From a bacterium (GTDB lineage: Bacteria > ARS69): a DNA stretch of 64,000 bases. The notes below the pieces were generated by a model. It had not been told where the DNA came from. It was given only the letters and a program-made list of their open reading frames with translations, and did no database searches. Of this stretch, positions 1 through 45,013 are shown one piece after another. The position numbers were made by a program, and so were the translations under genes. Where the stretch lies: the NCBI GenBank assembly GCA_046330135.1, contig JAXLTI010000008.1:10302-74301 (forward strand), given 5' to 3'. Position 1 is the first letter of the stretch; the number at the start of each line of letters is the position of its first letter.

Positions 1-427
1 CAACGGCTGGTACGTGTGCGGGGACCGCGCCAGTCTGGATGCGGACGGCTACTTCTGGTTCACCGGCCGCGACGACGACGTCATCAATACCGGCGGGCAC
101 CTCGTGGGGCCCTTCGAGATCGAGAGCGCGCTGCTCGAGCACGAGGCCGTCGCGGAGTCCGCCGCCATCGGCAAGCCCGATCCCATGAACATGGAGGTCG
201 TGAAGGCGTTCGTGGCGCTGAAGCCCGGCTTCGGCGCGTCGTCGGATCTCGAGCTGTCCATCATGAACTTCATCCGCAAGAAGCTCTCCCCGCTCGCGAT
301 GCCGCAGGAGATCGAGTTCGTGGACCATCTCCCCAAGACGCGCAGCGGGAAGATCATGCGGCGCCTGCTCAAGGCCAAGGAATGGGGCCAGGAAGTGGGC
401 GACGTGAGCACGCTGGAGGATGCGTAG
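1..427 (+). CDS. AMP-dependent synthetase/ligase (acyl-CoA or acyl-ACP synthetase), C-terminal fragment; 5' end lies outside the window
   Basis: Frame-2 ORF runs from the window edge to TAG at 425-427. The translation ...[38 protein letters not shown]...[14 protein letters not shown] is the C-terminal subdomain of adenylate-forming enzymes, including the conserved C-terminal Lys. GC3 is high. Confidence 0.8.
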
Positions 428-533
428 GGCGTAGCTTCCGAAGCCCGATCGGCTTCGGCGATGGAGCCCACCCGGCCACGCGCTGCGCGGATGCGCACCG
501 GCGAGCGCCGGGTCCCGGAACGAGGAGCGTGTC

Positions 534-779
534 GTGAAGGACGTGATCCTGGACTACATCCGCAAGGAGTACCTGGACGAGGACGAGGACTTCGAGCTGG
601 ACGAGCACACGCCCCTCATCTCGGGCGGCATCGTGGACAGCTTCAGCATGGTGAGCCTGCTGCGGTTTCTCGAGAGGAAGTACTCGGTCTCCATTCCGGA
701 CGAGGAGGCCACCCCGGAGGCTTTCGACACGGTGGTGAGCATCATCGAGCTCGTGAAGCGCCACCAGAAGGGCAAGTGA
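534..779 (+). CDS. acyl carrier protein (specialised ACP, 81 aa)
   Basis: GTG start preceded by GAGGAG. The acidic protein MKDVILDYIRKEYLDEDEDFELDEHTPLISGGIVDSFSMVSL... has a DSF(S) phosphopantetheine-attachment-like motif. Its stop TGA overlaps the next ATG (TGATG). Confidence 0.75.
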   Translation: MKDVILDYIRKEYLDEDEDFELDEHTPLISGGIVDSFSMVSLLRFLERKYSVSIPDEEATPEAFDTVVSIIELVKRHQKGK

Positions 780-2026
780 TGTCGTACCCCGCCTCGGTGA
801 GGGAAGGCTACCTGACGGAGCTCGGCTCCATCCGCGAGAAGGGCATCTTCAAGGAAGAACGGTTCATCCATTCGCCGCAAGCGGCCGGGATCCGCGTGGA
901 GTTCCCCTCCGGCGCCGCGCTGCAGGACGTGGTGAACCTGTGCTCGAACAACTACCTCGGTCTCTCCAGCCACCCCGACGTGGTCGCGGCCGCCCACCGC
1001 GGCCTCGACGAGCGCGGCTACGGGATGTCCTCGGTCCGCTTCATCTGCGGCACGCAGGACATCCACCGCACGCTGGAGCGCAAGCTGACCGAGTTCCTCG
1101 GGACCGAGGACACCATCCTCTTCCCGAGCTGCATGGACGCGAACGCCGGCGTGTTCGAGGCGATTCTCGGACCCGAGGACATCATCATCTCCGATCGCCT
1201 CGTGCACGCGAGCATCGTGGACGGCATCCGCCTGTGCAAGGCGGAGCGGGACACGTACAAGCACGCGGACGCGGCGCACCTCGAAGAGAAGCTCGTGGAG
1301 CACGCGGGCAAGCGCGTGAAGATGATCGTGACGGACGGCAACTTCAGCATGGACGGGGACCTCGCCCCGCTGAAGGACATCTGCGACCTCGCCGACAAGC
1401 ACGGCGCGCTCGTCTTCGTGGACGACAGCCACGCCACCGGCTTCATCGGCAAGACGGGCCGCGGCACCCACGAGCACCACGGCTGCGTCGGCCGCATCGA
1501 CGTCATCACCACGACGCTCGGCAAGGCGCTGGGCGGCGCGAGCGGCGGCTGCGTGTCGGGCCGTAAGGAGATCGTGGACCTCTGCCGGCAGAAGGCGCGC
1601 CCCTACCTCTTCAGTAACGCGGTCCCGCCGCCGATCGCGTACGCGGCCGTGAAGGTCCTGGAGATCCTCGGCGCCACCACGGAGCGCCGCGACAAGCTCG
1701 AGCGCAACACCACGTTCTGGCGCAAGGCGCTCACGGACGCGGGTCTCGTGATCAAGGACGGCGAGAGCCCGATCGTCCCGGTGATGCTCTACAACGCGAA
1801 GCTCAGCCAGGACATGGCGCGGGACCTCTATCACGAGGGCATCTACGTGGTGGGCTTCTTCTTCCCCGTCGTGGCCGCGGGCCAGGCGCGGATCCGCACC
1901 CAGCTCTCCGCCGACCACGACATCCCGATGCTCCAGCGCGCCGCCGAGTCCTTCAAGAAGGTCGGCGCGAAGTACGGGATTCTCGGCCTCGACAAGAAGG
2001 GGATCCTCGAGAAGTACGGCGTGTGA
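779..2026 (+). CDS. alpha-oxoamine synthase family PLP enzyme (Kbl/glycine C-acetyltransferase-like; possibly acyl-ACP-dependent, SPT-like)
   Basis: ATG at 779 overlaps the ACP stop. The C-terminal ...[27 protein letters not shown]... closely matches the E. coli Kbl motif [27 protein letters not shown]. The PLP-Lys region [12 protein letters not shown] is present. The ORF-track start at 461 is an artefactual upstream extension. Confidence 0.8.
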   Translation: [415 protein letters not shown]

Positions 2027-2179
2027 CCGCCCGCCGTCGCGGCCGGCCCCGCCATCCGAACGAGCGCCTCGCGAACGAGACGCTCTCCGGCTTCCGGCGG
2101 GCCGGGCGGGATTCCCGTCCGGCGCGAAGGTCGAGCCCCCCGCACGAAGGGGCGCCGCCCACCCCGTGTCTCGAAGGTC

Positions 2180-2263
2180 TCAGGCGCGCAGCACGGTCTG
2201 GTTGTGGTTGGCGGACAGTTTGTTCAGCACGAGGTCCAGAATGGCGTTGAAGAGCGCGAGCAT
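2180..2263 (-). CDS. hypothetical 27-aa peptide (MLALFNAILDLVLNKLSANHNQTVLRA)
   Basis: ATG is preceded by a strong SD (cgAAGGAGAct, 4-5 nt spacer). GC3 is high for most codons. There is no recognisable family. It lies in the 440-bp spacer between the lipid module and sigma-1. Confidence 0.25.
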   Translation of the reverse strand: MLALFNAILDLVLNKLSANHNQTVLRA

Positions 2264-2465
2264 GGGAGTCTCCTTCGTTCCAGGGCTCGTCGGGATCCCG
2301 GGGGCCTCGGCCTTCTCGGAGGCCCCGGGGGCGGGCCGCATCGCACCGCTACCCCTCTTGCGCCGTAAGCGGCCCGGACATGACACCGGGCCGGAGGTCG
2401 CCCGCCCCTTTCGCCGCGTCCCCCGGGGGGTGACACCCCACCTCCCCAAGCCCTAGCATCGGGGC

Positions 2466-3056
2466 ATGTCGAGCGATCCCCCTGTCGGCGCTCCTCCGCC
2501 GTCGCCCGCCGAACCCCCCGACACCTTCTTCGCCCGGGTCTACGAGGAGCTCCGGACGATCGCCCACGCCCGGTTGCGGGGCGAGCTGGGCAACCCGTCC
2601 CTGCAGACCACTGAGCTCGTGCACGAGGCGTTCCTCCGGCTGCGCGGGAGGGATGGAGACGCCTGGCCGGGTCGCGGCCAGTTCTTCGCCGCGGCGGCGC
2701 TGGCCATGCGCCGCATCCTCATCGAGCGGGCACGCGCCCGGAGCCGCGTCAAGCGCGGCGGCGACGCCGACGGCCGCGCGGCCGCCCGAGTGCCTCTGGA
2801 TCTGGAAGAGGTGGTGGCTCTCGCCGACGACCGCGACCCCGAGGCGATCCTCGCCATGGACGAGGCCATCGATCGCCTGGCCGAGAAGGACGACCGCGCC
2901 GCGCAAGTCGTGCGGCTCCGCTTCTACGGCGGGTTGGACGTGGAAGAGACGGCCGAGGCGCTGGGGACTTCCACGCGCACGGTGCTGCGCGACTGGGCGT
3001 TCGCGCGCGCGTGGCTCCACGTGGAGCTGACGGGCGGCGAGTCCGCGTCGGCCTGA
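2466..3056 (+). CDS. ECF-type RNA polymerase sigma-70 factor (kinase-associated ECF group)
   Basis: Region-2-like TTELVHEAFLRL and region-4-like RLRFYGGLDVEETAEALGTSTRTVLRDWAFARAWL. Paralog of the sigma at 10782. It is convergent with the TPR-kinase, with tails 2 bp apart. Confidence 0.8.
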   Translation: MSSDPPVGAPPPSPAEPPDTFFARVYEELRTIAHARLRGELGNPSLQTTELVHEAFLRLRGRDGDAWPGRGQFFAAAALAMRRILIERARARSRVKRGGDADGRAAARVPLDLEEVVALADDRDPEAILAMDEAIDRLAEKDDRAAQVVRLRFYGGLDVEETAEALGTSTRTVLRDWAFARAWLHVELTGGESASA

Positions 3057-3058
3057 CG

Positions 3059-5920
3059 CTACCGCGCGGCGGCCAGCGGGTAGTCCGCGCGGGCACGAAG
3101 GGGCGTGAGCTCCGCGTACTTCGCGACATCCGCCGGAGTGGCGCCGTGGCTGGCCGCCTCGGCAAGCTGCTTCACGGCGCCCTCCGTGTCGCCGGCCCGG
3201 GCGCGCACCGCCGCCCAGACGAGATGCGGGTTGCCGAGATCGGGATCGTCCGTCCCTGCGGTTCGCAGCGGCATTCCGACCCGCATCATGGCCTCCGCCT
3301 CCGGATGACGTCCCTGCATGGACCGCAAGTACGCGTGCTCGACGAGACATGCCCCGAGGTACATTCGCAGCGCCGCCTTGGTAGAGTCCATGCCCGCCTC
3401 TGCGCGCACGTAGAAGCTGTCCGCGCGCTGGGTGCGGCCTTGGTCGCGGCAGAGCGTGGCGTAGTCCATGGCCGCCAACGGGGCGAACACGCTGGTGGCC
3501 CTCACGCTGTCGAACACGGCGAAGGCCGCCCGGAACGTGGAGTCCGCTTGCCGCGGCCGCTTGGCCCACGCGTAGGTGCGCGCGAGATTCGCCATGGCTT
3601 CGCCGGTCCGCTCGTGCGCAAGACCCAAGCCCTTCTTACCCACGTCGCAAGCTTCCTGGCTGCGCGCAATGGCCAGATCCGGTTTGTCGGCGGTCCGGTA
3701 GAGCGCGCCGAGGGAGGTCAGGTCGCAAGTGAGGGATAGCGGATCTCCGATCGCTCTCCGGATGCGCACCGCCTCCTCTCGCGCCGTGATGGCTTCTTCG
3801 TAGCGCTTGCGGATCTCGAAAGCGTCGGCCTGACCCCCGAGCGCATCCGCGAGGTTCGGATGAGCCCCGGGATAGACGCTTCTCGCGAGGCGCAGGGCCT
3901 GATCCGCGTGGAGCTGCGTGTTCTGCGCGTCGCCCAGCGCCCGATGCACGTTCGCCAGGCGCCGATGAGCGTAGATGGCCCATCCGGTCAGGTCCGACCC
4001 CTCCGCCAGCTGGAGAGTGCGCGAGTACAAGCGCGCCGCTTCCCGGAGGTCGAACCGTTGGTGCGCGATCGTTGCCCGCGTGGAGTAGATCCGCAGAAGG
4101 GCCGTCGTGTCGGGGACCGCCTCCGCCTCCGCGAGTCGAAGGGCGCGTGTGAGGATCGAGTCCGCCTTCGCGAGCTCGCCGCGGTCGTCCCACCAGCTCC
4201 CTTTCCGGTAGAAGCATCTGGCCAGCAGGCGAGTGTCCGGCTTGGCAGAGCGCTGGAGGACGGCGATGGCGCGGTCCAGAACGACCGCCACGCTGTCGGA
4301 CCCCTGCGCGTCCAAGGCCTGGGCCAGGTTGTAGAGCTGACGCGCGGTCTCCGCTCCGGGGCGCGGCTCGGCCCGCTCCGTCGCGGCCAGCGCCTCGCGC
4401 GCGAGGCGGATCGACTCGTCGAAGCGACCGAGATTCTGATACGACTCCGACATCGCCGCCAGGAGGCGCGCCTGCACGAAGGGATCTTCGATCGTTCGGG
4501 ACTCGATGCGCCGGGTGCCCTCGTCCAAGAGGGTGCGCGCGGTCAGGTCCTTGCCCTTCGCCACGTCGGGATTCGAGGCGCCGAAGAGTCCCACCAGGAA
4601 GTCGGCCACCTGCTTCGACGACGTTGCTTCTCGCTCCGCCGTCCGTTCCGCGCGGACCGCGCGGCGGAGTCCCATGACGGTGGCCACTCCGCCGGCGACG
4701 ACCGCCAGCAGCACGAGTGCCGTGGCGGTGGTCATGACGCGGTGCTTGCGCACGAACTTCCGCAGGCGGTAGGCGGAGCCGGGCGCGGCGGCCAGCACCG
4801 GCTCGTCCGCGAGGTAACGCCGAACGTCGGCCGCCAGCTCCGCCGCGGACCCGTAGCGTCGCTCCGGGTCCTTCTCCAGCGCACGCCCCGCGATCCACTC
4901 CAGCTCGCCGCGCAGGTCTCGGAGCAGAACCCGCGCCTCGCACGAGCGGGCGGCCGCGACGGCGCCGAGAGTCTCCGCGGAGCGAGACAGCCGCGTGGCG
5001 AGCGGAGGAGGATCTTCCTCCCGAACCACCCGCAGCGCTTCGGAGAGCGGGCTCTCCGCGAGCCGGTCGGAGTCGAACGGCAAGACGCCCGTGAGCAGCT
5101 CGTAGAGCAGGACCCCGAGCGAGTACACGTCCGAGCGCGTGTCCACGGCGCCCGCCACGGCGCCCGACTGCTCCGGGCTCATGTAGCCGAGCGTTCCCAC
5201 GATCATGCCTTCGCGCGTGACGAGCGTTTCGCCGCGTCCGGGCGTCGTGGCCTTCACGACGCCGAAGTCGATGACCTTCGGTGAAGGCGCGCCGTCGCGT
5301 CGCGTGACGATCACGTTCGACGGCTTGAGGTCGCGGTGGATCACTCCCTTCTGGTGCGCGTGCTGCACGGCGTCGCAGACCGCAGCGAAGAGCGCCAGGC
5401 GTTCGCGGATGCGGAGGCGCTCCGCGTCGCAGAACTTGGTGATGGGCGAGCCGGGCACGTACTCCATCACGAAGTACGGGCGGCCGGTCTCGGTGGCGCC
5501 GGCCTCGAACACCTGCGCGATCCCGGGGTGCTCCATGAGCGCCAGCGCCTGACGCTCCACTTCGAATCGCGCCACGATCTGCGCCGTATCCATCCCCGGC
5601 TTGATGAGCTTCAGCGCCACGCGGCGGTGGATGGGCTTCTGCTGCTCCGCGAGCCATACGACGCCGAAGCCGCCTTCGCCGAGGATCTCGAGCAGGTGGT
5701 AGGCGCCGATGGTCCCGGCGGCGGGGGCGGAGGGGGCGGTGTCGCGCGGCGCGAGGAAGCGGTCGGCGGTTCCTTCGGAAGCGAGGAGCCGCTCGACGTC
5801 GGCGCGCAGCCTCGGGTCCTCGGCAGTCTCGCGGTCGAGCAACGCGCTCCGCTCGGCGGCGGGGAGATCGCGGGCGCGATCGAAGAGGTCGCGAAGGCGG
5901 TGCCAGCGCTCGTCGGTCAT
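3059..5920 (-). CDS. Ser/Thr protein kinase (Hanks-type) with a TM segment and C-terminal TPR repeats
   Basis: Kinase motifs GEGGFGVVWLA, VALKLIKP, HRDLKPSNV, DFG, SPEQ. A hydrophobic TM segment follows at about residue 400, then TPR-like repeats. The start is chosen at MTDERWHRLRDLF (5920) by analogy with the paralog. The ORF-track start at 6037 is probably an extension. Confidence 0.8.
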   Translation of the reverse strand: MTDERWHRLRDLFDRARDLPAAERSALLDRETAEDPRLRADVERLLASEGTADRFLAPRDTAPSAPAAGTIGAYHLLEILGEGGFGVVWLAEQQKPIHRRVALKLIKPGMDTAQIVARFEVERQALALMEHPGIAQVFEAGATETGRPYFVMEYVPGSPITKFCDAERLRIRERLALFAAVCDAVQHAHQKGVIHRDLKPSNVIVTRRDGAPSPKVIDFGVVKATTPGRGETLVTREGMIVGTLGYMSPEQSGAVAGAVDTRSDVYSLGVLLYELLTGVLPFDSDRLAESPLSEALRVVREEDPPPLATRLSRSAETLGAVAAARSCEARVLLRDLRGELEWIAGRALEKDPERRYGSAAELAADVRRYLADEPVLAAAPGSAYRLRKFVRKHRVMTTATALVLLAVVAGGVATVMGLRRAVRAERTAEREATSSKQVADFLVGLFGASNPDVAKGKDLTARTLLDEGTRRIESRTIEDPFVQARLLAAMSESYQNLGRFDESIRLAREALAATERAEPRPGAETARQLYNLAQALDAQGSDSVAVVLDRAIAVLQRSAKPDTRLLARCFYRKGSWWDDRGELAKADSILTRALRLAEAEAVPDTTALLRIYSTRATIAHQRFDLREAARLYSRTLQLAEGSDLTGWAIYAHRRLANVHRALGDAQNTQLHADQALRLARSVYPGAHPNLADALGGQADAFEIRKRYEEAITAREEAVRIRRAIGDPLSLTCDLTSLGALYRTADKPDLAIARSQEACDVGKKGLGLAHERTGEAMANLARTYAWAKRPRQADSTFRAAFAVFDSVRATSVFAPLAAMDYATLCRDQGRTQRADSFYVRAEAGMDSTKAALRMYLGACLVEHAYLRSMQGRHPEAEAMMRVGMPLRTAGTDDPDLGNPHLVWAAVRARAGDTEGAVKQLAEAASHGATPADVAKYAELTPLRARADYPLAAAR

Positions 5921-6064
5921 CGCCCGCGAGTCTACCGGATATCGCGCCGCCCGGGCGCGGTGCGTGGTGGTGCTTCTCGATGGATCGCCCGGGTTCCCGC
6001 CCTCGAAGTCCGCGCACATGACACGGATCGTCCGCAACCGGGGGGAGCGGGTCCCGCCGACGAA

Positions 6065-6092
6065 GAGGCCGGAACCACCAGGTCCCGGCCTC
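6065..6092. terminator. GC-rich hairpin (GAGGCCGG-N12-CCGGCCTC) in the spacer downstream of the FG-GAP gene
   Basis: Perfect 8-bp inverted repeat read directly from the sequence. There is no U-tract, as expected in a high-GC genome. Function unproven. Confidence 0.2.
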
Positions 6093-6224
6093 TTCCCACA
6101 ACCATCGCGCCATCACGATCTTCCGCGCCTCGCTGCAACCTCCGACCTGCCGCGAACTGACGCCCGGGGAGCCTGGTGCCGTCGGTGAGGCGCCCGGCCG
6201 TCGATCGCTTCCTGCGGACGCAGG

Positions 6225-9200
6225 CTACTTCAGCCGCACCACCCGACGCGTCTGCTGCTGCCCCGCCGCCTGTAGGCGCACGAAGTACACCCCACTCGCC
6301 ACCGACTTGCCCTCCGTGTCGCGACCGTCCCAGCTCATCCGGTAGGAACCAGGATCATGCGCGCCGTGCGCGAGCTCGCGCACCAGCCGGCCAGCGACGT
6401 CGAAGATCCGCACGCTCGCCTCGCCCGCCCTCGGCAGAGCGAACTCGATCACCGTGCTCCCGCGGAACGGGCTCGGCGACGGCGCCTTCAGGCCGAACGC
6501 CAGCGCTCCGACTTCCGGCGCCCCCACTCCCGCTTGCGGTTCCACGATCACGAACGGCGACAGCGATGTGCTTTGCCCGCAAACGATGTTCGCGTTCGTG
6601 TCCAGGGACGACGTGACGTCCACCCACGAGCCCGAAGCGAAGTGGTACATCTTCAGGTTCGCCTCGCTCCCCACGACATCCGTGTCGTTGTAGTGCAGGC
6701 ATACCGTCACCTGCCCCGTGAAAGTCGCCGTCGTCGAGATGTCGTCGTACACCGGCGGAGAGACCGGAACGATCTGGAAGCCCGCCGGCGGCGGCGGACC
6801 TGCGCTCTCCACATTCACCGACGTGATCCCTTCCGAGGTCACCTGGTCGAAGGTCGCGGTCACCGCGGGACCCAGCGTGACCTGCACGTTCGTGCCGGTT
6901 CCCGTGTACGCCGAGTAGACGGACGGATTGTCCAAATGCCCCCGAAGGTCGGCCTCGGAGCCACCGTTTCCCGGCCACCCCCAGACCCAGCGCGAACGCG
7001 GGAAGAACGGCGAGTCGGTGATCACGCGTGCCCGCCAGTGGTACATGTCTCCCGGTGTCAGCCCGCTGACGAGCTGAGTCAACGAGACGGCACTTCCCGA
7101 GGGCCCCGGCGCCCCGGTGTCCGTGCGCGGACCGATCTGCAGGTTGTTCCCGTTGAAGGACGTTCCAAGTCGCTTCTTCTCGACGACCAGACGCACCCTT
7201 CCACGTCCTGCCGGCGTGCGACCGAGCACCTTCGCGCGGAACGCGACCTCCGAGTCCGACTGGCCGAGCAACGCGATGGGAGCGGAGTCGTCGGTACGCA
7301 CCTGGCGGGGAGCGAGGTCGAGGCCGTCACCTCCGTTGCCGTAGTAGACGGCCGCTGTAGCCGGGGCCCCCCCGTAGTACCCGGTGTTCCCGACGATCAC
7401 GTCCGAGTACCCGTCCCCGTTCACGTCCCCCGCCACGCCGACGGCCTCGCCACCCTGAGTCCCGTCTGTCCATGCGGGGCTCGCCCCCAGCCCCGGACCC
7501 AGATACAGGTACGCGCTGCGCGCGCTACGGGTGCCGACGATGACGTCGGAGTATCCGTCTCCGTTCACGTCGCCTGCCGTGCCCACCGCGGTGCCGAAGC
7601 TCGCATTGGTTGGGCCGTCTACTGTCCATTGGGGATTCGTCGATGGACCCGACACGGAACCCATGTACACGCAGGCCCGCCCCGCGAAGTTGTTGCGGCC
7701 CGGGGCGCCGACGATGATGTCCGAGTACCCGCCCCCGTTCACGTCTCCTGCCGTACCCACGGAAGAGCCGAGGTTCGCATTGGGCTGATCGCCCATCGCC
7801 GTCCAGGCGGGCGACGCGGCGAGCCCCGTGGGCGACCCCAAATACACGTAGGCCTTCCCCTCCTGATGTGGGCCGTAGCCGGGGGCGCCCACGATGACGT
7901 CCGAGTACCCGTCCCCGTTCACATCACCCGCGGTGGCCGCGGACGCGCCGAATGCCGAGTCGTACTGGTCATCCTGTGCGGTCCATGCGGGGCTCGCCGC
8001 CAGCCCTGACGACGACCCCAAGTACACGTGTGCGCGTCCCGTTACGCCGAACAAAAGGTCACCCTTCGCGCCCACGACGACGTCGGCATACCCGTCCCCG
8101 TTCACGTCCCCCGCCGTGCCGACCGGGCCCCCGAACCAGGCGTGCTCCCGATCGCTCTCCGCCGTCCAGGCGGGACTCGCCGACAGACCCGACGAGGACC
8201 CCAGATACACGTACGCTCGTCCCTCATCGACCTGGCCGTCGTCGTACGAGTAGGCCCCAACGATGATGTCCGAGTACCCATCCCCGTTCACGTCCCCCGC
8301 GGTACCCGCGGAGACGCCGAATCCCGCTCCGGCTTGATCGCTCTCTGCCGTCCACGCGGGGCTCGCCGACAATCCGGACGAGGACCCCAGGTACAAGTAC
8401 GCTCGTCCTTCGTTTGCTTCGCCATCGTCGTAGTACATGGCGCCCACGATGACGTCCGAGTACCCGTCCCCGTTCACGTCGCCCGCTGTCCCCACGGAGA
8501 CTCCGAAGTACGAATCGGGCTGATCGCTCGCCACCGTCCATCCCGGACTCGCGGCCAATCCCGACGCCGATCCGTGATACACGTAGACTCGCCCCGCGTC
8601 GCTCTGGGCGCCGTCGTACAGCGGAGCCCCGACGATGACGTCCGAGTACCCGTCCCCGTTCACATCCCCCGCCGTACCTGCGGAGGAGCCGAAGAACCCT
8701 ATGGCTTGATCACCCTCGGCGGTCCACGTGGGGCTGACCGCCAGCCCCGACGAGGAACCCAGATACACGTACGCCCGCCCCTGTTCGATCAGGCCGTCGT
8801 CGTATCCGTACGCCCCGATCACGACGTCCGCGAATCCGTCCCCGTTCACGTCTCCCGCCGTGCCCACGGAGCGGCCGAGTCCGGATCCGGATTGACCGGC
8901 GTCGGCCGTCCAGGAAGCGCTCCCGGCCAGTCCCGAAGCAGACCCCAGATACAGGTACGCCTGGCCCACCGTGTCGTCGCCCACGATGACGTCCGAGTAC
9001 CCGTCCCCGTTCACGTCCCCCGCCGTTCCCACGGAGACGGCGAAGTCCGATGCGACGAATTGGGCCTGGGCCGTCCAGGCGGGGCTCCCGGCCAGCCCGG
9101 AGGCGGAACCCAGATACACGTACGCCTGCCCGTGTCTAGTGAGGCCCAGGTCGTAGAGCGGGGCTCCGACGATGACATCCGAGTACCCGTCCCCGTTCAC

Positions 9201-10640
9201 ATCTCCCGCCGTCCCCACGGAGGCGCCGAAGGTCGCGCCCGCCATGTCGCTTTCCGCCGTCCACGCGGCGCTCGCCGCAAGGCCGGACGCGGACCCCAGA
9301 TACACGTACGCTCGCCCTTCGTCGGTTTGGCCGTTGTCGTACCCTCTGGCGCCGACGATGACGTCCGCGTACCCGTCCCCGTTCACGTCCCCCGCGGTAC
9401 CTACGGAGATGCCGAAGTACGCCGAGTCTTGATTACTCTCCGCCGTCCAGGAGGGACTCGCGGCCAGCCCCGAAGCGGACCCGAGGTACACGTACGCCCG
9501 CCCTTCGTCGGTCTGGCCGTTGTCGTACCCGTACGCCCCGACGATGACGTCCGAGTACCCATCGCCGTTCACATCCCCGGCAGCGCCCACGGACCGGCCG
9601 AAGTACGCCGACGCCTGATCACCCTCGGCCGTCCACGCGGGGCTCGCCACCAGCCCGGACGCGGACCCCAGGTACACGAACGCGCGGCCCGCGTCGGTCT
9701 GACCGGTGTCGTACCGATGCGCTCCGACGATGACGTCCGAGTATCCGTCCCCATTCACGTCCCCCGCCGTGCCCACGGAGATCCCGAAGAACTCCGAGGC
9801 CTGATCGCCGTCCGCCGTCCAGGCCGGAGAGGTCATGAGGGGATCGATGGCGATGGGGTAGGTCGCCGCGCCGTCCTCGATCAGGATCGCGAGCTGCTCA
9901 CCCGAAAGCCCCAGTCGCGCGGGGAGCGCGCGCCCGCTCGCATCCACGGCATGTACGTCCGCGTAGCGCAGCACGCGCGCTCCGTGCTCGTCCAGGAAGT
10001 CCACCGCACCGTCCTTCAGTTGAGCGTGGAGCGCGCCCGCCACGTGCCCCTCGAGACGCAGCGCGCCCTCACCCGCGGGTCGCTCGCGCACCGTGAAGCC
10101 CTGCTCGAGACCCTCCTTCTTGTTCTCGTACCACTCGTCGAAGCCTTCGCGCACGTAGCACACGCGAGCGCCGTCGACCTTCGGTTCGAGCGGAGCGGCA
10201 TCGATCACGTGCATCTGCCCCGCCCGGCCAAGCTGCGTCGTCCGCCACGCGAAGCGCCAAGAGGACGCGAGCGGGCTCGGCTGCTGCCGCGGCACTACTT
10301 CGATCCCGCCCGCGCGGAAGTAGGTGCGAAGACCCTGAGCGCGGTTCGGCGCCTGCAACCCCGCCGAGGTGACCGACGCGCGATACTCGCCGCCCTCGAT
10401 CTGGGCGGAGACGGTCTGCCACCAGCCCGCTCCTGCGCCCGCCGTCCGCGCGCCGGGCGTGATGTCCGGCTGCCGCGCGAGCGCGGTGGCGGCCGGCATG
10501 GCGAGTACGCGGGGAGTGAGCGGGCGAACAGTCGAGTCCTTCTGGACGGACGTGCTCGCGATCAGGAGCAGGGGGACGAACACGAAGGAGCGAAGGGCGG
10601 CCAGATGCGGCTCCACCCTCCGGCGGGCGTGCGAGTTCAT
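6225..10640 (-). CDS. giant FG-GAP (integrin-alpha-like) repeat protein with signal peptide and C-terminal Por/T9SS sorting domain
   Basis: ATG at 10640 has an excellent SD (aAAGGAGGcatccc). Signal-peptide-like MNSHARRRVEPHLAALRSFVFVPLLLIAST. About 14 tandem ~60-aa units contain GTAGDVNGDGYSDVIVGA...GRAYVYLGS. The C-terminal tail ...IFDVAGRLVRELAHG...GVYFVRLQAAGQQQTRRVVRLK is typical of the T9SS/FlgD-Ig-like CTD. The ORF-track start at 10745 is an extension. Confidence 0.85.
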   Translation of the reverse strand: MNSHARRRVEPHLAALRSFVFVPLLLIASTSVQKDSTVRPLTPRVLAMPAATALARQPDITPGARTAGAGAGWWQTVSAQIEGGEYRASVTSAGLQAPNRAQGLRTYFRAGGIEVVPRQQPSPLASSWRFAWRTTQLGRAGQMHVIDAAPLEPKVDGARVCYVREGFDEWYENKKEGLEQGFTVRERPAGEGALRLEGHVAGALHAQLKDGAVDFLDEHGARVLRYADVHAVDASGRALPARLGLSGEQLAILIEDGAATYPIAIDPLMTSPAWTADGDQASEFFGISVGTAGDVNGDGYSDVIVGAHRYDTGQTDAGRAFVYLGSASGLVASPAWTAEGDQASAYFGRSVGAAGDVNGDGYSDVIVGAYGYDNGQTDEGRAYVYLGSASGLAASPSWTAESNQDSAYFGISVGTAGDVNGDGYADVIVGARGYDNGQTDEGRAYVYLGSASGLAASAAWTAESDMAGATFGASVGTAGDVNGDGYSDVIVGAPLYDLGLTRHGQAYVYLGSASGLAGSPAWTAQAQFVASDFAVSVGTAGDVNGDGYSDVIVGDDTVGQAYLYLGSASGLAGSASWTADAGQSGSGLGRSVGTAGDVNGDGFADVVIGAYGYDDGLIEQGRAYVYLGSSSGLAVSPTWTAEGDQAIGFFGSSAGTAGDVNGDGYSDVIVGAPLYDGAQSDAGRVYVYHGSASGLAASPGWTVASDQPDSYFGVSVGTAGDVNGDGYSDVIVGAMYYDDGEANEGRAYLYLGSSSGLSASPAWTAESDQAGAGFGVSAGTAGDVNGDGYSDIIVGAYSYDDGQVDEGRAYVYLGSSSGLSASPAWTAESDREHAWFGGPVGTAGDVNGDGYADVVVGAKGDLLFGVTGRAHVYLGSSSGLAASPAWTAQDDQYDSAFGASAATAGDVNGDGYSDVIVGAPGYGPHQEGKAYVYLGSPTGLAASPAWTAMGDQPNANLGSSVGTAGDVNGGGYSDIIVGAPGRNNFAGRACVYMGSVSGPSTNPQWTVDGPTNASFGTAVGTAGDVNGDGYSDVIVGTRSARSAYLYLGPGLGASPAWTDGTQGGEAVGVAGDVNGDGYSDVIVGNTGYYGGAPATAAVYYGNGGDGLDLAPRQVRTDDSAPIALLGQSDSEVAFRAKVLGRTPAGRGRVRLVVEKKRLGTSFNGNNLQIGPRTDTGAPGPSGSAVSLTQLVSGLTPGDMYHWRARVITDSPFFPRSRWVWGWPGNGGSEADLRGHLDNPSVYSAYTGTGTNVQVTLGPAVTATFDQVTSEGITSVNVESAGPPPPAGFQIVPVSPPVYDDISTTATFTGQVTVCLHYNDTDVVGSEANLKMYHFASGSWVDVTSSLDTNANIVCGQSTSLSPFVIVEPQAGVGAPEVGALAFGLKAPSPSPFRGSTVIEFALPRAGEASVRIFDVAGRLVRELAHGAHDPGSYRMSWDGRDTEGKSVASGVYFVRLQAAGQQQTRRVVRLK
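7310..9830. repeat. intragenic tandem repeats (~14 x ~180 bp) encoding FG-GAP units
   Basis: The repeated protein unit is visible in the translation. The opposite strand yields repeated artefactual ORFs (MTSEYPSPFTSPAVPT...). Confidence 0.7.
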
Positions 10641-10781
10641 GGGATGCCTCCTTTTCTCGGCGCGCCCTTCATGCGCCGGAAACGCCCGGACCCCGCCAAC
10701 CGCCGCGCTGGATTGGGCGAATTCGCACCGCGTCCGCGTGGCCACTTGAGGCCGCAGCGGCCCCCCGGTACCATCGCGAGC

Positions 10782-11351
10782 ATGAACGAATCGACCGGGG
10801 AAGAAGCGGGGGACGCCGGCACCACCTCCGACGCCTTCTTCGGCCTCGTCTACGACGAGCTGCGTTCACTCGCGCACGCCAGGATGCAAGGTGAGCGAGC
10901 CGGGCACACCCTTCAGACGACCGAGCTGGTTCACGAGGCCTACCTCCGCCTTTCGCGCGGCGGCGAGGGCTCGTGGCAGAACCGCGGTCACTTCTTCACG
11001 GCCGCGGCCGAGGCGATGCGGCGTATCCTCATCGAGCGGGCGCGCCGAAGGGGGCGCGTGAAGCGCGGTGCCGATTCCGAGGGGCGACCCGTGGAACGCG
11101 TCCCTCTCAACGTCGCCGAGATCGCTGCTCTGGCCGACGACGGGGATCCCGAGACGGTGCTCGCCATGGACGCCGCGATCGAACGCCTCGCTCGGCGGGA
11201 CGAACGCCTGGCGAAGGTCGTGAAGCTCCGCTTCTACGCGGGGTTGACGGTCGAAGAGATCGCGGAGGTCCTCGGGACGTCGCCTCGCACCGTCCAGCGG
11301 AGCTGGGCGTTCGCGAGGGCGTGGCTCTACGGGGCCGTTTCCCGGGAATAA
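10782..11351 (+). CDS. ECF-type RNA polymerase sigma-70 factor, paralog 2
   Basis: ATG at 10782. The protein MNESTGEEAGD...QTTELVHEAYLRL...VVKLRFYAGLTVEEIAEVLGTSPRTVQRSWAFARAWL is a paralog of the sigma at 2466. It is divergent, across a 141-bp spacer, from the FG-GAP gene. Its 3' end overlaps the convergent kinase by 25 bp. The upstream part of the 8028..11351 ORF is antisense artefact. Confidence 0.8.
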   Translation: MNESTGEEAGDAGTTSDAFFGLVYDELRSLAHARMQGERAGHTLQTTELVHEAYLRLSRGGEGSWQNRGHFFTAAAEAMRRILIERARRRGRVKRGADSEGRPVERVPLNVAEIAALADDGDPETVLAMDAAIERLARRDERLAKVVKLRFYAGLTVEEIAEVLGTSPRTVQRSWAFARAWLYGAVSRE

Positions 11352-14185
11352 CCCGCCCGGGCGCGGAGCGGAGCGAGCTCCGGGTAACCGGCTACCGTGG
11401 CGGGGGTGGCACCGCAGCGCTGCGCGCGCCGGAGCTTCTCGATCGCCCCGTCGGGGTCGCCGGCGTTAACCCGCGCGGCGGCCCAACGAACGAGGGCGTC
11501 TCCCAGCTCCTTGCTGTCTTTGGGGGCGTCTCCGAACATGAGCACCATGGAAGTGCTCAGCATGGACTCCGCCTCGACATGGCGACCCTGGAGAGAGCGC
11601 AGGTAGCCGTGATCGCCGAGACAGTCCGCGTAGTGCAGCCTGCTGGGCGCGTGACTCGAGTCCATCGCGGCTTCCCCGCGCGAATACAGTGCATCCGCCT
11701 GCTCGAAGCGTCTCAGCCTCCGACACACCGTTCCGTGGCCCTTGTACGCGTCACCCAGGCGCACTCCGCGCGGCTCGCGATGCTCGAACACCGGAATGGC
11801 CTTCCGGTAGAGCGAATCCGCCCGGGCTTCCGATCCGAGGGCGTCCCAGCAGTAGGCGAGCAAGCTGAGCGCTTCCGCGGTTCGCACGTTGTCCGGCCCC
11901 ACGGTACGCTCCCAGATGACGTACGACTCCTGGAAGCAGTCCCTCGCGCGGGCGAAGTCCTCCGCCTGCAAACAGTACACGCCGACGTTCTTCAGCTCGT
12001 GCGCGAGAGCGGTCGGCATGTCTCGCGCTCGGAAGATCCCCACCGCCTCCTCGTCGACGTCAATCGCCTGCTTGACTTCGCCGCCAGCTCCGAGCGCCGC
12101 GGCCCACGCGGCAAGCGCGTCGGCGTACATGAAGTGGTCCGGCCCGTAGAGCTTCCGCGCGAGGTCCACCGCTTCTTTCGCGTGACGGACCGCCTTCTCG
12201 GGCTCGTTCATCGCCGCGTACACCCAACTCAACCCTCTGTGAGCGCCAGCCGCGCTCATGGGTCGGGCCGTCTGCTCTGCGATCCGGAGCATGCGGAGGT
12301 AGCACTTCTCGGCGGTCGCGCAATCCGATCTGCGTAGAGCGATCATCGCCTTGGTCGCCAGCAGTCTCGGCAGCTGCGAGTTGTCGATCGGGGTCTTCGC
12401 CTCCACTACGCCGAGGGCGCGCGAGATCAGCGAATCTGCGGGCGCGTAGTCCCCGTGCTGCATGAGCCAGACCCCCTTCTCGGTCAAGTACCGCTCGAGG
12501 AAGTCGGAGTCCCCATGACCCAGCGCCGGCAACATCGCTTCCAAGCGACCGAAGAGGGGTTGGGCGACGTCGTCCTTGCCCGCCTGCGTCAGGCCGCTCG
12601 CCAGTCGGAGGGTCTGCTCCGCAACCGCCCGATCCTCCTTCGGCTTGATCGAGTCGACGGTCGCCAGCGCGGCGCGCAGGAGCCGCACACCCTCGTCGGT
12701 GAGCCCAAGGTTCAAGTGCGCCTCCCCAAGGGAAGTGAGCAATCGGGCACGAACCCGTGGATCGCCCGGGCCGCTCGCCTCGATGCGACGTGTGCCCTGT
12801 TCCAGCAGCTCGCGCGCCGTGACGTTCTCGCCTTGAGTGTGTTGGGGAGTCGTGGATTGGAACAGATCCACCAAGAAGTCGCTCACCTGCGAGGCCGTCT
12901 CCGCCTCGCGTCGAGCCACCCGCTCCCCTCGCCGGAAGCCCATCGCGGCGACGATGCTGCCCACGAGCACGGCCAGGAGCACGACGGTGGCGGCGGCCAC
13001 GGCGGCGCGGTGCCGGCGCACGAGCTTGTCGAGTCGGTAGACGGTGCTCGGCGCGGCGGCGGCGAGCGGCTCGCCCGCTAGGAAGCGACGGACGTCCGTC
13101 GCGAGCTCGCCCGCCGACGCGTAGCGGCGATCGGGGTCCTTCTCCAAGGCGCATGTCGTGATCCACCGGACATCGCTTCGAAGGTCCCGCAGCAGGCGGC
13201 GTGGGTCGGTGGAACGGCGCGCGGCAGTCTCGGCCAGAATCTCCGGCTCTCGGGAGGTCCGAGTCACCATCGGCGGTGGATCCTCTTCGCGAATCACACG
13301 CAAGGCTTCCGATGTCGGCATCGCACGCAGGCGGTCCGGGTCGAATGGAGGTGCTCCTGTCAGAAGCTCGTGGAGCATCGCACCGAGCGCGTAGACGTCC
13401 GTTCGAGTATCGACGGCCCCGGGCGCCATGCCCGCCTGCTCCGGACTCATGTACGCGAGCGTACCCAGCACGACGCCCTCCTGTGTCCACGGTGCGGTCT
13501 GCTCCGCGCCCGTCGGCGTCGTCGCTTTCGCGATGCCGAAGTCGATTACCTTGGACGCCACGCCGCGCTCGCGCCGAGCGACGATCACGTTCGACGGCTT
13601 GAGGTCGCGGTGAATGACCCCTCGCTGGTGCGCGTGCTGCACGGCGTCGCAGACGTCGGCGAAGAGCGCGAGACGATCTCGGACATCGAGGCGTTCCCGA
13701 TCGCAGAACGAGGTGATCGGCTCTCCAGGCACGTATTCCATGACGAAATACGGTCGACCGGCTTCCGTCTCGCCCGCCTCGAGGACCTGGGCGATGCCCG
13801 GATGGTCCATCAGCGCCAGCGCCTGGCGCTCGGCCTCGAACCGCGCGACCGTCTGCTTCGTATCCATCCCGGGCTTGATGAGCTTGAGCGCGACGCGCCG
13901 CCGGATGGGTCGAGTCTGCTCGGCCAGGTACACGACGCCGAAGCCGCCTTCACCGAGGGTCTCCACGAGCCGGTAGGGCCCGATCGATCCGAGGTCGCCC
14001 TTCGATTCTCGCGACACCAGGAATTCGACGGCGGACTCGTCCGCGGCGAGCAGGGCGACGAGCTCCGCTCGCAGCGCCGGATCGTCCGCGAGGTCGCGCT
14101 CGAGCAGCGTGCGCCGCTCCTCGAGGGACATGCCCTGGGCGCGGTCGAACAGCTCTTGAAGGCGCTGCCAGCGTTCGTCACTCAC
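11327..14185 (-). CDS. Ser/Thr protein kinase with TM segment and TPR repeats, paralog 2
   Basis: GEGGFGVVYLA, VALKLIKP, HRDLKPSNV, DFG, SPEQ. A TM segment is followed by TPR-like repeats. GTG start at VSDERWQRLQELF (14185) has GGAGGA 8 nt upstream. An alternative ATG lies at 14254. Confidence 0.75.
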   Translation of the reverse strand: MSDERWQRLQELFDRAQGMSLEERRTLLERDLADDPALRAELVALLAADESAVEFLVSRESKGDLGSIGPYRLVETLGEGGFGVVYLAEQTRPIRRRVALKLIKPGMDTKQTVARFEAERQALALMDHPGIAQVLEAGETEAGRPYFVMEYVPGEPITSFCDRERLDVRDRLALFADVCDAVQHAHQRGVIHRDLKPSNVIVARRERGVASKVIDFGIAKATTPTGAEQTAPWTQEGVVLGTLAYMSPEQAGMAPGAVDTRTDVYALGAMLHELLTGAPPFDPDRLRAMPTSEALRVIREEDPPPMVTRTSREPEILAETAARRSTDPRRLLRDLRSDVRWITTCALEKDPDRRYASAGELATDVRRFLAGEPLAAAAPSTVYRLDKLVRRHRAAVAAATVVLLAVLVGSIVAAMGFRRGERVARREAETASQVSDFLVDLFQSTTPQHTQGENVTARELLEQGTRRIEASGPGDPRVRARLLTSLGEAHLNLGLTDEGVRLLRAALATVDSIKPKEDRAVAEQTLRLASGLTQAGKDDVAQPLFGRLEAMLPALGHGDSDFLERYLTEKGVWLMQHGDYAPADSLISRALGVVEAKTPIDNSQLPRLLATKAMIALRRSDCATAEKCYLRMLRIAEQTARPMSAAGAHRGLSWVYAAMNEPEKAVRHAKEAVDLARKLYGPDHFMYADALAAWAAALGAGGEVKQAIDVDEEAVGIFRARDMPTALAHELKNVGVYCLQAEDFARARDCFQESYVIWERTVGPDNVRTAEALSLLAYCWDALGSEARADSLYRKAIPVFEHREPRGVRLGDAYKGHGTVCRRLRRFEQADALYSRGEAAMDSSHAPSRLHYADCLGDHGYLRSLQGRHVEAESMLSTSMVLMFGDAPKDSKELGDALVRWAAARVNAGDPDGAIEKLRRAQRCGATPATVAGYPELAPLRARAGYSRETAP

Positions 14186-14300
14186 GCAGGAGATCCTCCG
14201 CGGATTCCGCCGTCGAGGGGCGGCAGGATGCACCGCCACGACGCGCCGGCGCAAGGGTGGAGGGGAAGCGCGGTCGGCCCCGTCCGTCGCGTCGTGCGAC

Positions 14301-15806
14301 TTGTGCTACCCTGCCCGTTCGTTGCTTTGCACGCGGAACCGACTCACGACCCGAGGAACGGGGCGGGAGGAGCGTTTGGAGACTCCCGAGGCCTGGGCGG
14401 ACGAGATCGTCGGCCGGGCGGCGAGCGCGGCGGAGGCCTTCCTCCAGGTCGACCAGCCGCACGTCGACCGGATCGTCCGCGCCGTGTTCGAGGCGGCGTA
14501 CGCCGCACGATTGGACCTCGCGCGCATGGCCTTCGAAGAGACCGGCATGGGTCTCTACGAGCACAAGGTCATCAAGAACGCGTGGGCCAGCCTCCTCATC
14601 TACGAGGACATCCGCGAGCGGAGGACCGTCGGGCTGATCCGCGAGGACGCCGCACGGGGATTGGCGGAGATCGCGGTTCCCAAGGGGCCGATCCTCGCCA
14701 CGATCCCCGTGACGAACCCCACGTCCACGACGATCTTCAAGGCGCTCATCTGCATGAAGACCCGCAACCCGGTGATCTTCAGCCCGCATCGCGGCGCGCG
14801 GAAGTGCATCCGCGAAGCGGCGCGGATCTGCGCGGAGGCGGCCGCCGCCGCCGGGGCGCCCGACGGTGCCATCCAGTGGATCACGAAGGCGCCCATCGAT
14901 TACGTGAAGGCGGCCATGCGCCACCGCAAGCTCGCGTTGATCCTCGCGACCGGGACCGGCTCGATCGTGCGTCTCGCGCAGGAGTCCGGTACGCCCACGC
15001 TCGGCGTGGGGCCCGGCAACGTGCCCGTGTACGTCCACGCCTCCGCGGACCTCCCGGCCGCCGCCCGCGCGATCGTCCACTCGAAGACGTTCGACAACGG
15101 CGTCGTGTGCGCGAGCGAGCAGGCGCTCGTGGTGGAGCGCGGCCTCCAGGCGGAATTCCGCGCCCTGATGGAGGAGCGCGGCGCGCACTACTGTACGAAG
15201 GAGGAGTCCCGCCTCCTGGAGCCGCAGTGCTTCGATCCTTCTCGGCGCGGCATGCGCGCCGAGGTCGTGGGGCAGCCGGCAGCCGTCATCGCGCAGCGCG
15301 CCGGCTTCCGCGTGCCGAAGAAGACGCGTCTCCTCGTGGCGGAGCCTCTGGGCGTGGGGCCGGAGCACCCGCTCTCGTACGAGATCCTCGCGCCGGTGCT
15401 CGCGTCCTACCCGGTGGACAGCTACGACCAGGCGCTCGCCACGTGCCGGGAGCTGGCCGAGCACGGCGGCCTCGGCCACACCGTGGGTGTGTACGCACGC
15501 GACGAGCGCGTCGTGGCGGACTTCTCGCGGCTGAACGTGGCGCGGATTCTCGTGAATCAGCCCTGCACGGAGGGCGCGATCGGCGGGATCTTCAACTCGC
15601 TGCGGCCGTCCCTCACGCTGGCCTGCGGCTCCGGCGCGGGCAACGCGAACACCGACAACATCACGGTGGAGCACCTCCTGAACATCCACCGCGTGGCCCG
15701 CTTCCACGACAACGGCGGCTGGAGCGCCGTCCCGCGCGAAACCTGGCTCGACCCGGCCACGGGACCCCGCGAGATCGTGGCGCGCTACCGAAGAACCGAG
15801 GGCTAG
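14301..15806 (+). CDS. CoA-acylating aldehyde dehydrogenase (EutE/PduP-like ALDH)
   Basis: ALDH-fold protein with catalytic Cys in DNGVVCASEQ and LGVGPGNVP. The start is uncertain: the first ~25 codons are low-GC3, and an alternative TTG lies at 14375. Confidence 0.65.
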   Translation: MCYPARSLLCTRNRLTTRGTGREERLETPEAWADEIVGRAASAAEAFLQVDQPHVDRIVRAVFEAAYAARLDLARMAFEETGMGLYEHKVIKNAWASLLIYEDIRERRTVGLIREDAARGLAEIAVPKGPILATIPVTNPTSTTIFKALICMKTRNPVIFSPHRGARKCIREAARICAEAAAAAGAPDGAIQWITKAPIDYVKAAMRHRKLALILATGTGSIVRLAQESGTPTLGVGPGNVPVYVHASADLPAAARAIVHSKTFDNGVVCASEQALVVERGLQAEFRALMEERGAHYCTKEESRLLEPQCFDPSRRGMRAEVVGQPAAVIAQRAGFRVPKKTRLLVAEPLGVGPEHPLSYEILAPVLASYPVDSYDQALATCRELAEHGGLGHTVGVYARDERVVADFSRLNVARILVNQPCTEGAIGGIFNSLRPSLTLACGSGAGNANTDNITVEHLLNIHRVARFHDNGGWSAVPRETWLDPATGPREIVARYRRTEG

Positions 15807-15911
15807 TCCGCACGCCGGCAGCGGGCTGCGAAGAGAGCCGCGAGGCGTCGAGCGCTCGAGGGCGCCGCCGCAGGCGACGTCTGGGAACCGAGCCCCACCC
15901 CCTGCGAGCGC

Positions 15912-16001
15912 GGTGAGCTCGGGAGGCGGACTCCCTCCCGCGGGCCTGGGAACGCTGTGAGAAGCCCGGTGAGCCCGGAAGGCGGACTGGCTCCCGCGGG
16001 C
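15912..16001. repeat. two ~34-bp REP-like direct repeats, each able to form a GGGAGG/CCTCCC-type hairpin, in a convergent intergenic spacer
   Basis: ggtgagctcgggaggcggactccctcccgcgggc (15912-15945) and ggtgagcccggaaggcggactggctcccgcgggc (15968-16001), ~28/34 identical, lying between the 3' ends of the ALDH and the secreted-protein gene. Confidence 0.4.
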
Positions 16002-30349: not shown

Positions 30350-30457
30350 CCGCCCCTCCCGGTCCGCCTGCCTGACCAACCTATCGGCTTTCCGGGGGTC
30401 CGATCTCAAGTCTTGGCGCTCACTCGTCGATTCTCCACGGATGAAACGGAGGTGAGC

Positions 30458-31414: not shown

Positions 31415-31444
31415 GAAAGACCTGAGAGAGACCAGGAGGTCATC

Positions 31445-32557: not shown

Positions 32558-32649
32558 CGGTCGGATTCCACCCCGTCGCCGACGCATCGCGGGGCGCGGC
32601 CTTCCCCTCCGCCTTCCGGACGCGGCGGGGCTCGACTCGGGCTGGTGGA

Positions 32650-43725: not shown

Positions 43726-43891
43726 CGCCGCGCGACAGCCTAGCAGATCGCCCCGCCGCGCTTCCAGACGCCGCGGCCTTCGGCTTTGATGACTTCGAGT
43801 CGCCCTCTGCGCCGTCAAAGCCCACCCCTTGGCCCGCGCCCGCCGCCGGGTCTATCTTGGTACGAGCCTCCGCAGCCCCGCGAGGACCTCG

Positions 43892-44974: not shown

Positions 44975-45013
44975 GTCGCCTGCGCCGGCCTGTGCTAGGC
45001 TTCGCCGGTGAGC

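Follow-up and report, generated by a model that had tools for sequence, protein, structure and literature searches.

How phosphorylation activates an extracytoplasmic function (ECF) sigma factor has been established for only two pairs, both from Proteobacteria. In Vibrio parahaemolyticus, the ECF43 sigma factor EcfP and the kinase PknT act in the response to polymyxin; PknT phosphorylates a Thr of EcfP, and binding to the core RNA polymerase follows (PMC8999054, PMC8103513). In Xanthomonas citri, the ECF43 sigma factor EcfK and the Hanks-type receptor kinase PknS control a type VI secretion system (T6SS), and PknS phosphorylates the Thr in region 2.2 of EcfK plus residues of the linker (PMC13147305). 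The hallmark of ECF43 sigma factors is that they co-occur with a Hanks kinase, and they lack the acidic DAED motif of region 2.2 (PMC13147305, PMC8999054, PMC7826278, PMC8103513); the conserved Thr lies inside a QTTA consensus and is found in 88% of the members (PMC13147305, PMC8999054). Here, we describe a 64,000-nucleotide (nt) stretch of bacterial DNA (contig JAXLTI010000008.1, positions 10,302 to 74,301; hereafter the window, GC content about 70%), in which two gene pairs of this type, sigma-1/kinase-1 and sigma-2/kinase-2, lie on either side of a gene for a large FG-GAP repeat protein.

Taken as a whole, the region is best explained, and probably correctly so, as two ancient paralogous signalling modules of the ECF43/Hanks-kinase type. 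The core of this finding is an already known kind of system, and if none of the inferred steps discussed below holds, the region amounts to two more ECF43/kinase pairs. New are the convergent layout of the genes, a sigma-linked module in the kinases, a candidate promoter and a small gene. The locus bears on how a kinase picks its sigma factor and which promoters such sigma factors read, and it adds a little-known candidate phylum (Eiseniibacteriota-like) to those with the system, with the genes rearranged to a convergent layout. With two paralogous pairs side by side, it also represents a natural test of pair specificity.

Two convergent ECF43-type sigma/kinase pairs

The two pairs and the gene between them are arranged as follows (aa, amino acids; bp, base pairs).

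2466-3056, plus strand: sigma-1, ECF43-type sigma factor, 196 aa; stop codon TGA at 3054-3056
3059-5920, minus strand: kinase-1, PknS-type receptor Ser/Thr kinase, 953 aa; stop codon antisense of CTA at 3059-3061
6225-10640, minus strand: FG-GAP gene, 1471 aa; GGAGG six nt before the ATG
10641-10781: spacer of 141 bp between the FG-GAP gene and sigma-2
10782-11351, plus strand: sigma-2, ECF43-type sigma factor, 189 aa
11327-14185, minus strand: kinase-2, PknS-type receptor Ser/Thr kinase, 952 aa; stop codon at 11327-11329

When the sequence was checked again, every coordinate that a first-pass annotation had given for the two pairs and the FG-GAP gene was borne out, with 2 bp between the stop codons of sigma-1 and kinase-1 and 25 bp (11327-11351) common to the 3' ends of sigma-2 and kinase-2. 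The start of kinase-2 is better placed at the GTG at 14185 (MSDERW...) than at the TTG at 14254, since kinase-1 and the L001 homologues all begin at the aligned position. The paralogy of the pairs also stood: the sigma factors are 62% identical, the full-length kinases (about 950 aa) share 51% of their residues, and the pairs are therefore old paralogues and not the product of a recent duplication. The closest genome relative of sigma-2 is encoded in a Candidatus Eiseniibacteriota metagenome-assembled genome (L001; 66% identity), with the remaining genome matches near 50%, and a metagenome contig (L081) encodes a sigma factor with 72% identity.

The two sigma factors score 156.4 and 173 bits with PF07638 (Sigma70_ECF; cut-off 21.1) and 171.2 and 189.1 bits with TIGR02999 (cut-off 126.15). 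We take these families to be equivalent to ECF43, an assumption that also rests on the common region 2.2 motif, which reads LQTTELVHEA in both proteins. The Thr column of this region is occupied by T in 165 of the 168 aligned sigma relatives. Together with the PknS-like partner kinases, these features place both proteins in a Ser/Thr-kinase-associated ECF class, as the first-pass annotation had predicted. The kinase genes abut both sigma genes, the other neighbours being an aminotransferase gene, the FG-GAP gene and an aldehyde dehydrogenase-like gene, and a domain scan of the immediate neighbour genes of the sigma factors revealed no anti-sigma domain.

By analogy with EcfP/PknT and EcfK/PknS, each sigma factor would bind core RNA polymerase poorly until it is phosphorylated by its partner kinase, at the Thr of region 2.2 and possibly at linker residues too. 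The predicted phospho-acceptors are:

2610-2612, plus strand: codon of Thr49 of sigma-1, within LQTTELVHEA
10920-10922, plus strand: codon of Thr47 of sigma-2

Like EcfP, the window sigma factors are devoid of the acidic DAED in region 2.2 and carry the Thr that is the target of PknT in EcfP; unlike EcfP, whose STTA has no acidic residue, they keep a Glu. This terminal Glu of region 2.2 is shared with EcfK (QTTE in the window sigma factors, QATE in EcfK). Against activation through this Thr alone stand the acidic residue that region 2.2 of both sigma factors keeps and the finding that the T51A mutant of EcfK (QATE) is still functional (PMC13147305), so the Thr may not be the sole switch. More generally, it weighs against the proposed steps that in this organism they rest on sequence and analogy.

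A Pfam scan of the kinases returned Pkinase (E = 3e-38 and 9.7e-39) plus TPR_12 in both, and the catalytic motifs GEGGFG, VALK, HRDLKPSN, DFG and SPE are whole in both. On inspection of the sequences, TPR_12 repeats come after a single hydrophobic stretch, TTATALVLLAVVAGGVATVMGL, from which we infer, by analogy with PknS, a single transmembrane (TM) helix and a periplasmic tetratricopeptide repeat (TPR) part. The best solved-structure match of kinase-2 residues 1-380 was 9eed, X. citri PknS(1-364), with E = 8.7e-54, followed by PknB with 3.9e-45. In the phmmer alignment, query residues 5-369 are paired with 9eed residues 8-363, including the N-terminal motif (RWQRLQELFDRA vs AWQRLEALFHRA). The partner of each sigma factor would be a membrane kinase whose N-terminal module and kinase domain face the cytoplasm and whose TPR sensor lies in the periplasm; the predicted order of N-terminal extension (about 60-80 aa), Hanks kinase domain, one TM helix and periplasmic TPR is that of PknS. 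The window differs from the EcfK/PknS system in that there are two paralogous pairs, that the genes converge with touching or overlapping 3' ends, that the identity of the kinases to PknS is moderate, and that the candidate target is an FG-GAP protein with a putative sorting domain of the type IX secretion system (T9SS) type and not a T6SS cluster. From EcfP/PknT it differs in sensor domain and regulon.

In order to place the convergent layout, we tallied about 168 sigma genes, comprising those of 160 loci fetched by sigma similarity and those of the window. The kinase gene lies directly 3' on the same strand for 116 of them, is convergent and adjacent for four (both window pairs, L001 and L004, a Thermoanaerobaculia locus), and is divergent and adjacent for another four. 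The prevailing arrangement corresponds to the sigma-kinase operons of Planctomycetota, Verrucomicrobiota and Acidobacteriota (TIGR02999/PF07638), which have sigma factors of the same family (45-55% identity) and kinases with the same N-terminal module; there, the kinase gene starts at or near the sigma stop on the same strand, whereas the window genes converge. The earlier claim of a duplicated convergent geometry is thus right for both pairs, but the geometry is a rare variant of the co-directional operon and not the norm. Two further convergent loci are L081, where the kinase runs off the contig, and L165, which was found through the FG-GAP protein. Besides the window, the convergent form was seen only in three relatives, all Eiseniibacteriota-like, and a single acidobacterial locus, and it is a conserved lineage trait. 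It probably arose in Eiseniibacteriota-like genomes by a lineage-specific rearrangement of the usual operon, which would uncouple transcription of sigma factor and kinase.

The first-pass annotation had proposed, in addition, transcriptional interference between each sigma gene and its kinase gene. This is speculation, and we regard a regulatory role of the convergent 3' ends, through polymerase collision or antisense 3' ends that would render expression of sigma factor and kinase mutually antagonistic, as unlikely. It is true that window pair 2, L001 and L081 share an identical 25-bp overlap, and in each of them the kinase stop codon TAG lies antisense to the codons CTC-TAC at the '...AWLY' end of the sigma gene. 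In addition, no terminator-like site was found in 2100-14600 and the convergent junction regions fold no better than shuffles, so transcripts probably enter the opposite gene. The overlap is, however, not required, because its place is taken by gaps of 2 bp in window pair 1, 31 bp in L165 and 39 bp in L004, and its conservation is explicable by constraint on the codons of the sigma C-terminal WLY together with common descent. No Rfam families were detected in 1-16000.

A module at the N-terminus of sigma-adjoining kinases

Both kinases begin with the same short domain, and the parts of kinase-1 are given here in order from its N-terminus.

5747-5920, minus strand: N-terminal module of kinase-1
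about 4787-5701, minus strand: kinase domain of kinase-1
about 4667-4735, minus strand: predicted TM helix of kinase-1
about 3062-4603, minus strand: TPR region of kinase-1
14012-14185, minus strand: N-terminal module of kinase-2

The N-terminal motif that the first-pass annotation had reported as common to the kinases is present in both, as TDERWHRLRDLFDRA and SDERWQRLQELFDRA. It turned out to be the first helix of a module of about 55 aa that comprises three helices and has the consensus xxxLFxxALxLxxxERxAFLDxxCxxDxxLRxxVExLLxAxxxxxxFL. The module is homologous to the N-terminal extension of PknS, which is conserved, possibly functional and disordered in the crystal according to its authors (PMC13147305). 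It matches no Pfam family, even at E = 10, and in an AlphaFold2 model it consists of three helices with a mean predicted local distance difference test score (pLDDT) of 80.

The module is almost restricted to kinases that adjoin a sigma gene. With a hidden Markov model (HMM) of the module, 124 kinases carrying it were found, 116 of which adjoin an ECF43-type sigma factor; among kinases without the module, 9 of 11 do not adjoin one (Fisher p = 4e-8). Within the window, the kinases at 45008-47800 and about 29258-30058 lack the module, and no sigma gene adjoins them. In 51 non-redundant triplets of module, sigma factor and kinase domain, the distances between modules correlate with those between sigma factors (r = 0.81) and with those between the attached kinase domains (r = 0.63), the partial correlation of module and sigma factor being 0.66 (permutation p = 0.001).

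We propose that the three-helix module recruits the cognate sigma factor to the kinase. Such a domain would be a candidate handle on recruitment. Alternatively, the module may be an autoinhibitory or dimerisation element of this kinase subfamily, found beside sigma genes only because the whole subfamily is; we consider this rather doubtful. The predicted plainness of the three-helix unit would suit such an element, and so would its disorder in the PknS crystal and the lack of stand-alone module proteins. Yet the module is missing from the paralogous TPR kinase of the window, which shows 39% identity across the kinase domain and TPR part and is not paired with a sigma factor, and the module's distances track those of the sigma factors better than those of the kinase domain to which it is attached. 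The proposal of sigma recruitment has its own weak points: a Foldseek search against the PDB with the module model gave no informative match (best E-value 3.2), and a distance correlation can stem from a common evolutionary rate instead of physical contact, so that the correlation is suggestive only.

Two other ideas about the module were dismissed. For an anti-sigma-like fold, Foldseek against the PDB returned only generic three-helix matches and Pfam nothing. Candidate stand-alone module proteins, i.e. short matches, proved to be frameshift fragments of kinases in error-rich assemblies. In several long ENA contigs of the ERZ250394xx and ERZ250395xx samples (L161-L163), genes are broken into many short calls; this pattern is typical of frameshift-rich long-read assemblies and yields false 'stand-alone' domain proteins in the protein database.

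Several further kinase genes were noted. The TPR receptor kinase at 45008-47800 (plus strand), the third in the window, is 39% identical to kinase-1, has a proline-rich, disordered-looking N-terminus and no sigma neighbour, and the translation of the gene upstream of it (43829-44974) is radical-SAM-like by appearance. A fourth Hanks kinase domain lies at about 29258-30058 (minus strand), where the longest open reading frame (ORF), 29072-32587 (minus strand), overlaps plus-strand ORFs with better codon bias. In L001, the gene at 2813-5695 (plus strand), situated between two PknS-type kinases, encodes a kinase without the module that is fused to FGE-sulfatase-like and PETase-like hydrolase domains.

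Upstream sequences and the FG-GAP gene

The sequences upstream of the sigma genes contain two kinds of elements, a sigma-70-like promoter and a bipartite motif.

2430-2459, plus strand: sigma-70-like promoter of sigma-1, GTGACA-18-TAGCAT-6-ATG
10746-10774, plus strand: sigma-70-like promoter of sigma-2, TTGAGG-17-TACCAT-7-ATG, read from the sequence
L165: sigma promoter TTGAGG-17-TACCAT-7-ATG, identical to that of window sigma-2
L001: sigma promoter TTGAGC-17-TACCAT
L081: sigma promoter TTGTGC-17-TAGCTT-6-GTG
10672-10701, minus strand: bipartite motif before the FG-GAP gene, GGTTGGC-N13-TTCCGGCGCA, ending 32 nt upstream of the ATG; candidate sigma-dependent promoter
2359-2388, minus strand: bipartite motif before a small ORF of 27 aa, CGGTGTC-N13-TTACGGCGCA, 95 nt upstream

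The element at 2430-2459 was the sole sigma-70-like promoter match in 2100-14600 (12.5 kb). The placement of the promoters at both sigma genes predicts leaderless transcripts, and each sigma gene is probably transcribed alone from a housekeeping-type promoter into a leaderless mRNA. This promoter geometry fits constitutive, leaderless expression of a sigma factor that would be inactive until phosphorylated.

The bipartite motif was exposed by aligning the spacers upstream of the sigma genes and is given in the orientation read for the divergent genes. It has the form GTTGGC-N16-CGGCGCA, or more fully nGTTGGC-N13-TTnCGGCGCA. Besides the two window sites, it precedes the small-ORF homologues of L001 and, twice, of L165, as well as a conserved ORF, divergently oriented, of two Verrucomicrobiota loci (L042, L046), and it faces the sigma gene in one Phycisphaerales locus (L074). 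The exact sequence TTNCGGCGCA is found at three sites in the window as compared to 0.81 expected, and two of the three are in the two spacers upstream of the sigma genes. A position weight matrix (PWM) was trained only on sigma-adjacent sites of other genomes; its best match in the whole window, at 23.6 bits, was the site before the FG-GAP gene, the maximum in 40 random windows being 20.8, and the second distinct match was the small-ORF site at 2359-2388. From these observations we infer that the motif may serve as a sigma-dependent promoter. Once activated, the sigma factors would read it before the FG-GAP gene beside sigma-2, whose product is predicted to be an adhesin-like surface or secreted protein, and before the 27-aa gene beside sigma-1, so that these two genes of very different size would have a candidate target promoter in common.

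The product of the FG-GAP gene and the end of its transcript can be described as follows.

6225-10640, minus strand, parts of the FG-GAP protein: signal-anchor-like N-terminus; N-terminal domain; at least 14 FG-GAP repeats at about 7251-9743; C-terminal FlgD_ig/putative T9SS type A sorting domain at 6237-6476
6062-6095, minus strand: hairpin with a 15-bp stem, about 130 nt after the FG-GAP stop codon; z = -2.5

PF01839 matched 14 stretches (E = 1.3e-105), which identifies tandem FG-GAP repeats as in integrin-alpha-like beta-propeller proteins. At the C-terminus, FlgD_ig scored 45.9 bits (cut-off 27) and TIGR04183 (T9SS type A sorting domain) 29.5 bits (cut-off 23), with PF18962 (Por_Secre_tail) at 19.4 (cut-off 27). 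The hairpin was equalled in folding by 6 of 200 shuffles and is not followed by a U-tract; it suggests a likely transcript end, with the FG-GAP gene as a transcription unit of its own, apart from kinase-1.

The first-pass annotation had named the FG-GAP gene as a plausible target of the kinase-to-sigma signalling. We regard regulation by these sigma factors as plausible but unproven, and as a little less than evenly supported. In favour of it, the best PWM match of the window lies 32 nt before the start of the gene with a ribosome-binding site in between, which fits an FG-GAP promoter. The order FG-GAP gene, kinase, convergent sigma gene recurs in L165, one of three further contexts inspected for orthologues of the FG-GAP N-terminal domain; the kinase there is 53% identical to kinase-1 and the sigma factor 66% identical to sigma-1, and the order is that of the FG-GAP gene, kinase-1 and sigma-1 in the window. 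Conserved synteny ties the FG-GAP gene to pair 1, on the strand of kinase-1, and not only to sigma-2 as had been supposed. An Ignavibacteriales locus (L055) has two cargo genes, one of them of the FG-GAP_2/T9SS type, between a sigma gene and its module-bearing kinase gene.

Other observations speak against this regulation and would suit a different account, which we judge somewhat less than probable: the FG-GAP gene may be a mere neighbour, with the pairs controlling genes elsewhere, and the motif may be either an autoregulatory promoter of the sigma genes on the opposite strand or the site of another regulator. The FG-GAP orthologues in the other two contexts (L164, L166) have neither a sigma nor a kinase gene within 7 kb, and the nearest sigma relatives, L001 and L081, lack an FG-GAP gene by the sigma gene and have other genes upstream. 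Read on the other strand, the motif points at the sigma genes: the plus-strand sequence is TGCGCCGGAAAC, with a GGAAC as is typical of the -35 element of ECF promoters, and the sigma start codons follow 85-110 nt further on. The spacer at 10641-10781 had been suggested as a place to look for ECF-type promoter motifs, and a bipartite motif is present there, but as read for the divergent genes it resembles neither element of the canonical ECF promoter (GGAAC/CGTC). It is also missing from most of the 160 related loci. Against this different account speak, on the other hand, copy 1 of L165, where no gene lies on the opposite strand and the motif directly precedes the small ORF and then the kinase gene, and L074, where the motif faces the sigma gene in the orientation GTGGC...CGGCGCA; the strand of the motif is argued only because of these two loci.

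Returning to recognition of the motif by the activated sigma factors, the joint proposal is that these read an undescribed promoter with sites also beside ECF43 sigma genes of Verrucomicrobiota and Phycisphaerae, that the FG-GAP protein and the 'NHNQT' peptide encoded by the 27-aa gene belong to their regulon, and that the N-terminal module sets pair specificity; as a whole, we put it forward as a tentative model that is more probably wrong in some part than right in all.

Generalisations of these observations did not hold. As a general feature of ECF43 loci, the motif gave only two weak extra matches, and as for a general ECF43 autoregulatory promoter, enumeration of the dyads in front of 144 sigma genes gave no motif that exceeded the reverse-strand control. 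No published ECF43 promoter motif was found in the literature searched. FG-GAP genes do not accompany ECF43 sigma factors in general: tblastn of the 160 sigma loci gave no FG-GAP repeat match and only T9SS-type C-terminal domains, in L001, L049 and L055. In the window, two further ORFs end in C-terminal domains like that of the FG-GAP protein (58170-58433, plus strand, and 60147-60413, minus strand; 37% and 46% identity), so that the putative sorting domain recurs within this genome.

A conserved 27-aa gene

The small ORF preceded by the motif in the spacer upstream of sigma-1 has homologues of the same length in two of the related loci.

2180-2263, minus strand: small ORF of 27 aa, MLALFNAILDLVLNKLSANHNQTVLRA, with the ribosome-binding site AAGGAG; divergent from sigma-1
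L001 5768-5851, minus strand: homologue of the same length; divergent from the sigma gene
L165 11123-11206 and 14975-15058, plus strand: two homologues, also of 27 aa, each immediately 5' of a kinase gene

The homologues align from ATG to TGA without indels, and their flanks diverge. The encoded peptides have a C-terminal NHNQ(T/S) motif, and each copy found adjoins an ECF43-type sigma factor or its kinase. The gene is too short for most gene callers; it matches no Pfam or NCBIfam family, and no mention of its motif was found in the literature.

A tie to acidobacterial 'NHNQT'-repeat proteins (154 matches) was considered and rejected, as only the pentapeptide is common and the contexts are unrelated (C39-ABC exporter, MauG, TonB receptors). 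The one NHNQT case beside a sigma gene, in L060, is probably a coincidence. Small acidobacterial NHNQT-repeat proteins are encoded, for example, at 4001-8219 of L167, upstream of a gene for a resistance-nodulation-division (RND)-adaptor-like protein and a Peptidase_C39/ABC transporter, and this arrangement suggests that the acidobacterial family consists of exported peptides.

In L165, about 37 bp (GGGATGGCCGTTCGTCCGAGCGGCCTTCTCGCAACGG) occur twice in tandem at 14885-14960 (plus strand), in the interval that separates the motif from the second small ORF; the first small-ORF copy of this locus has a single unit of the repeat.

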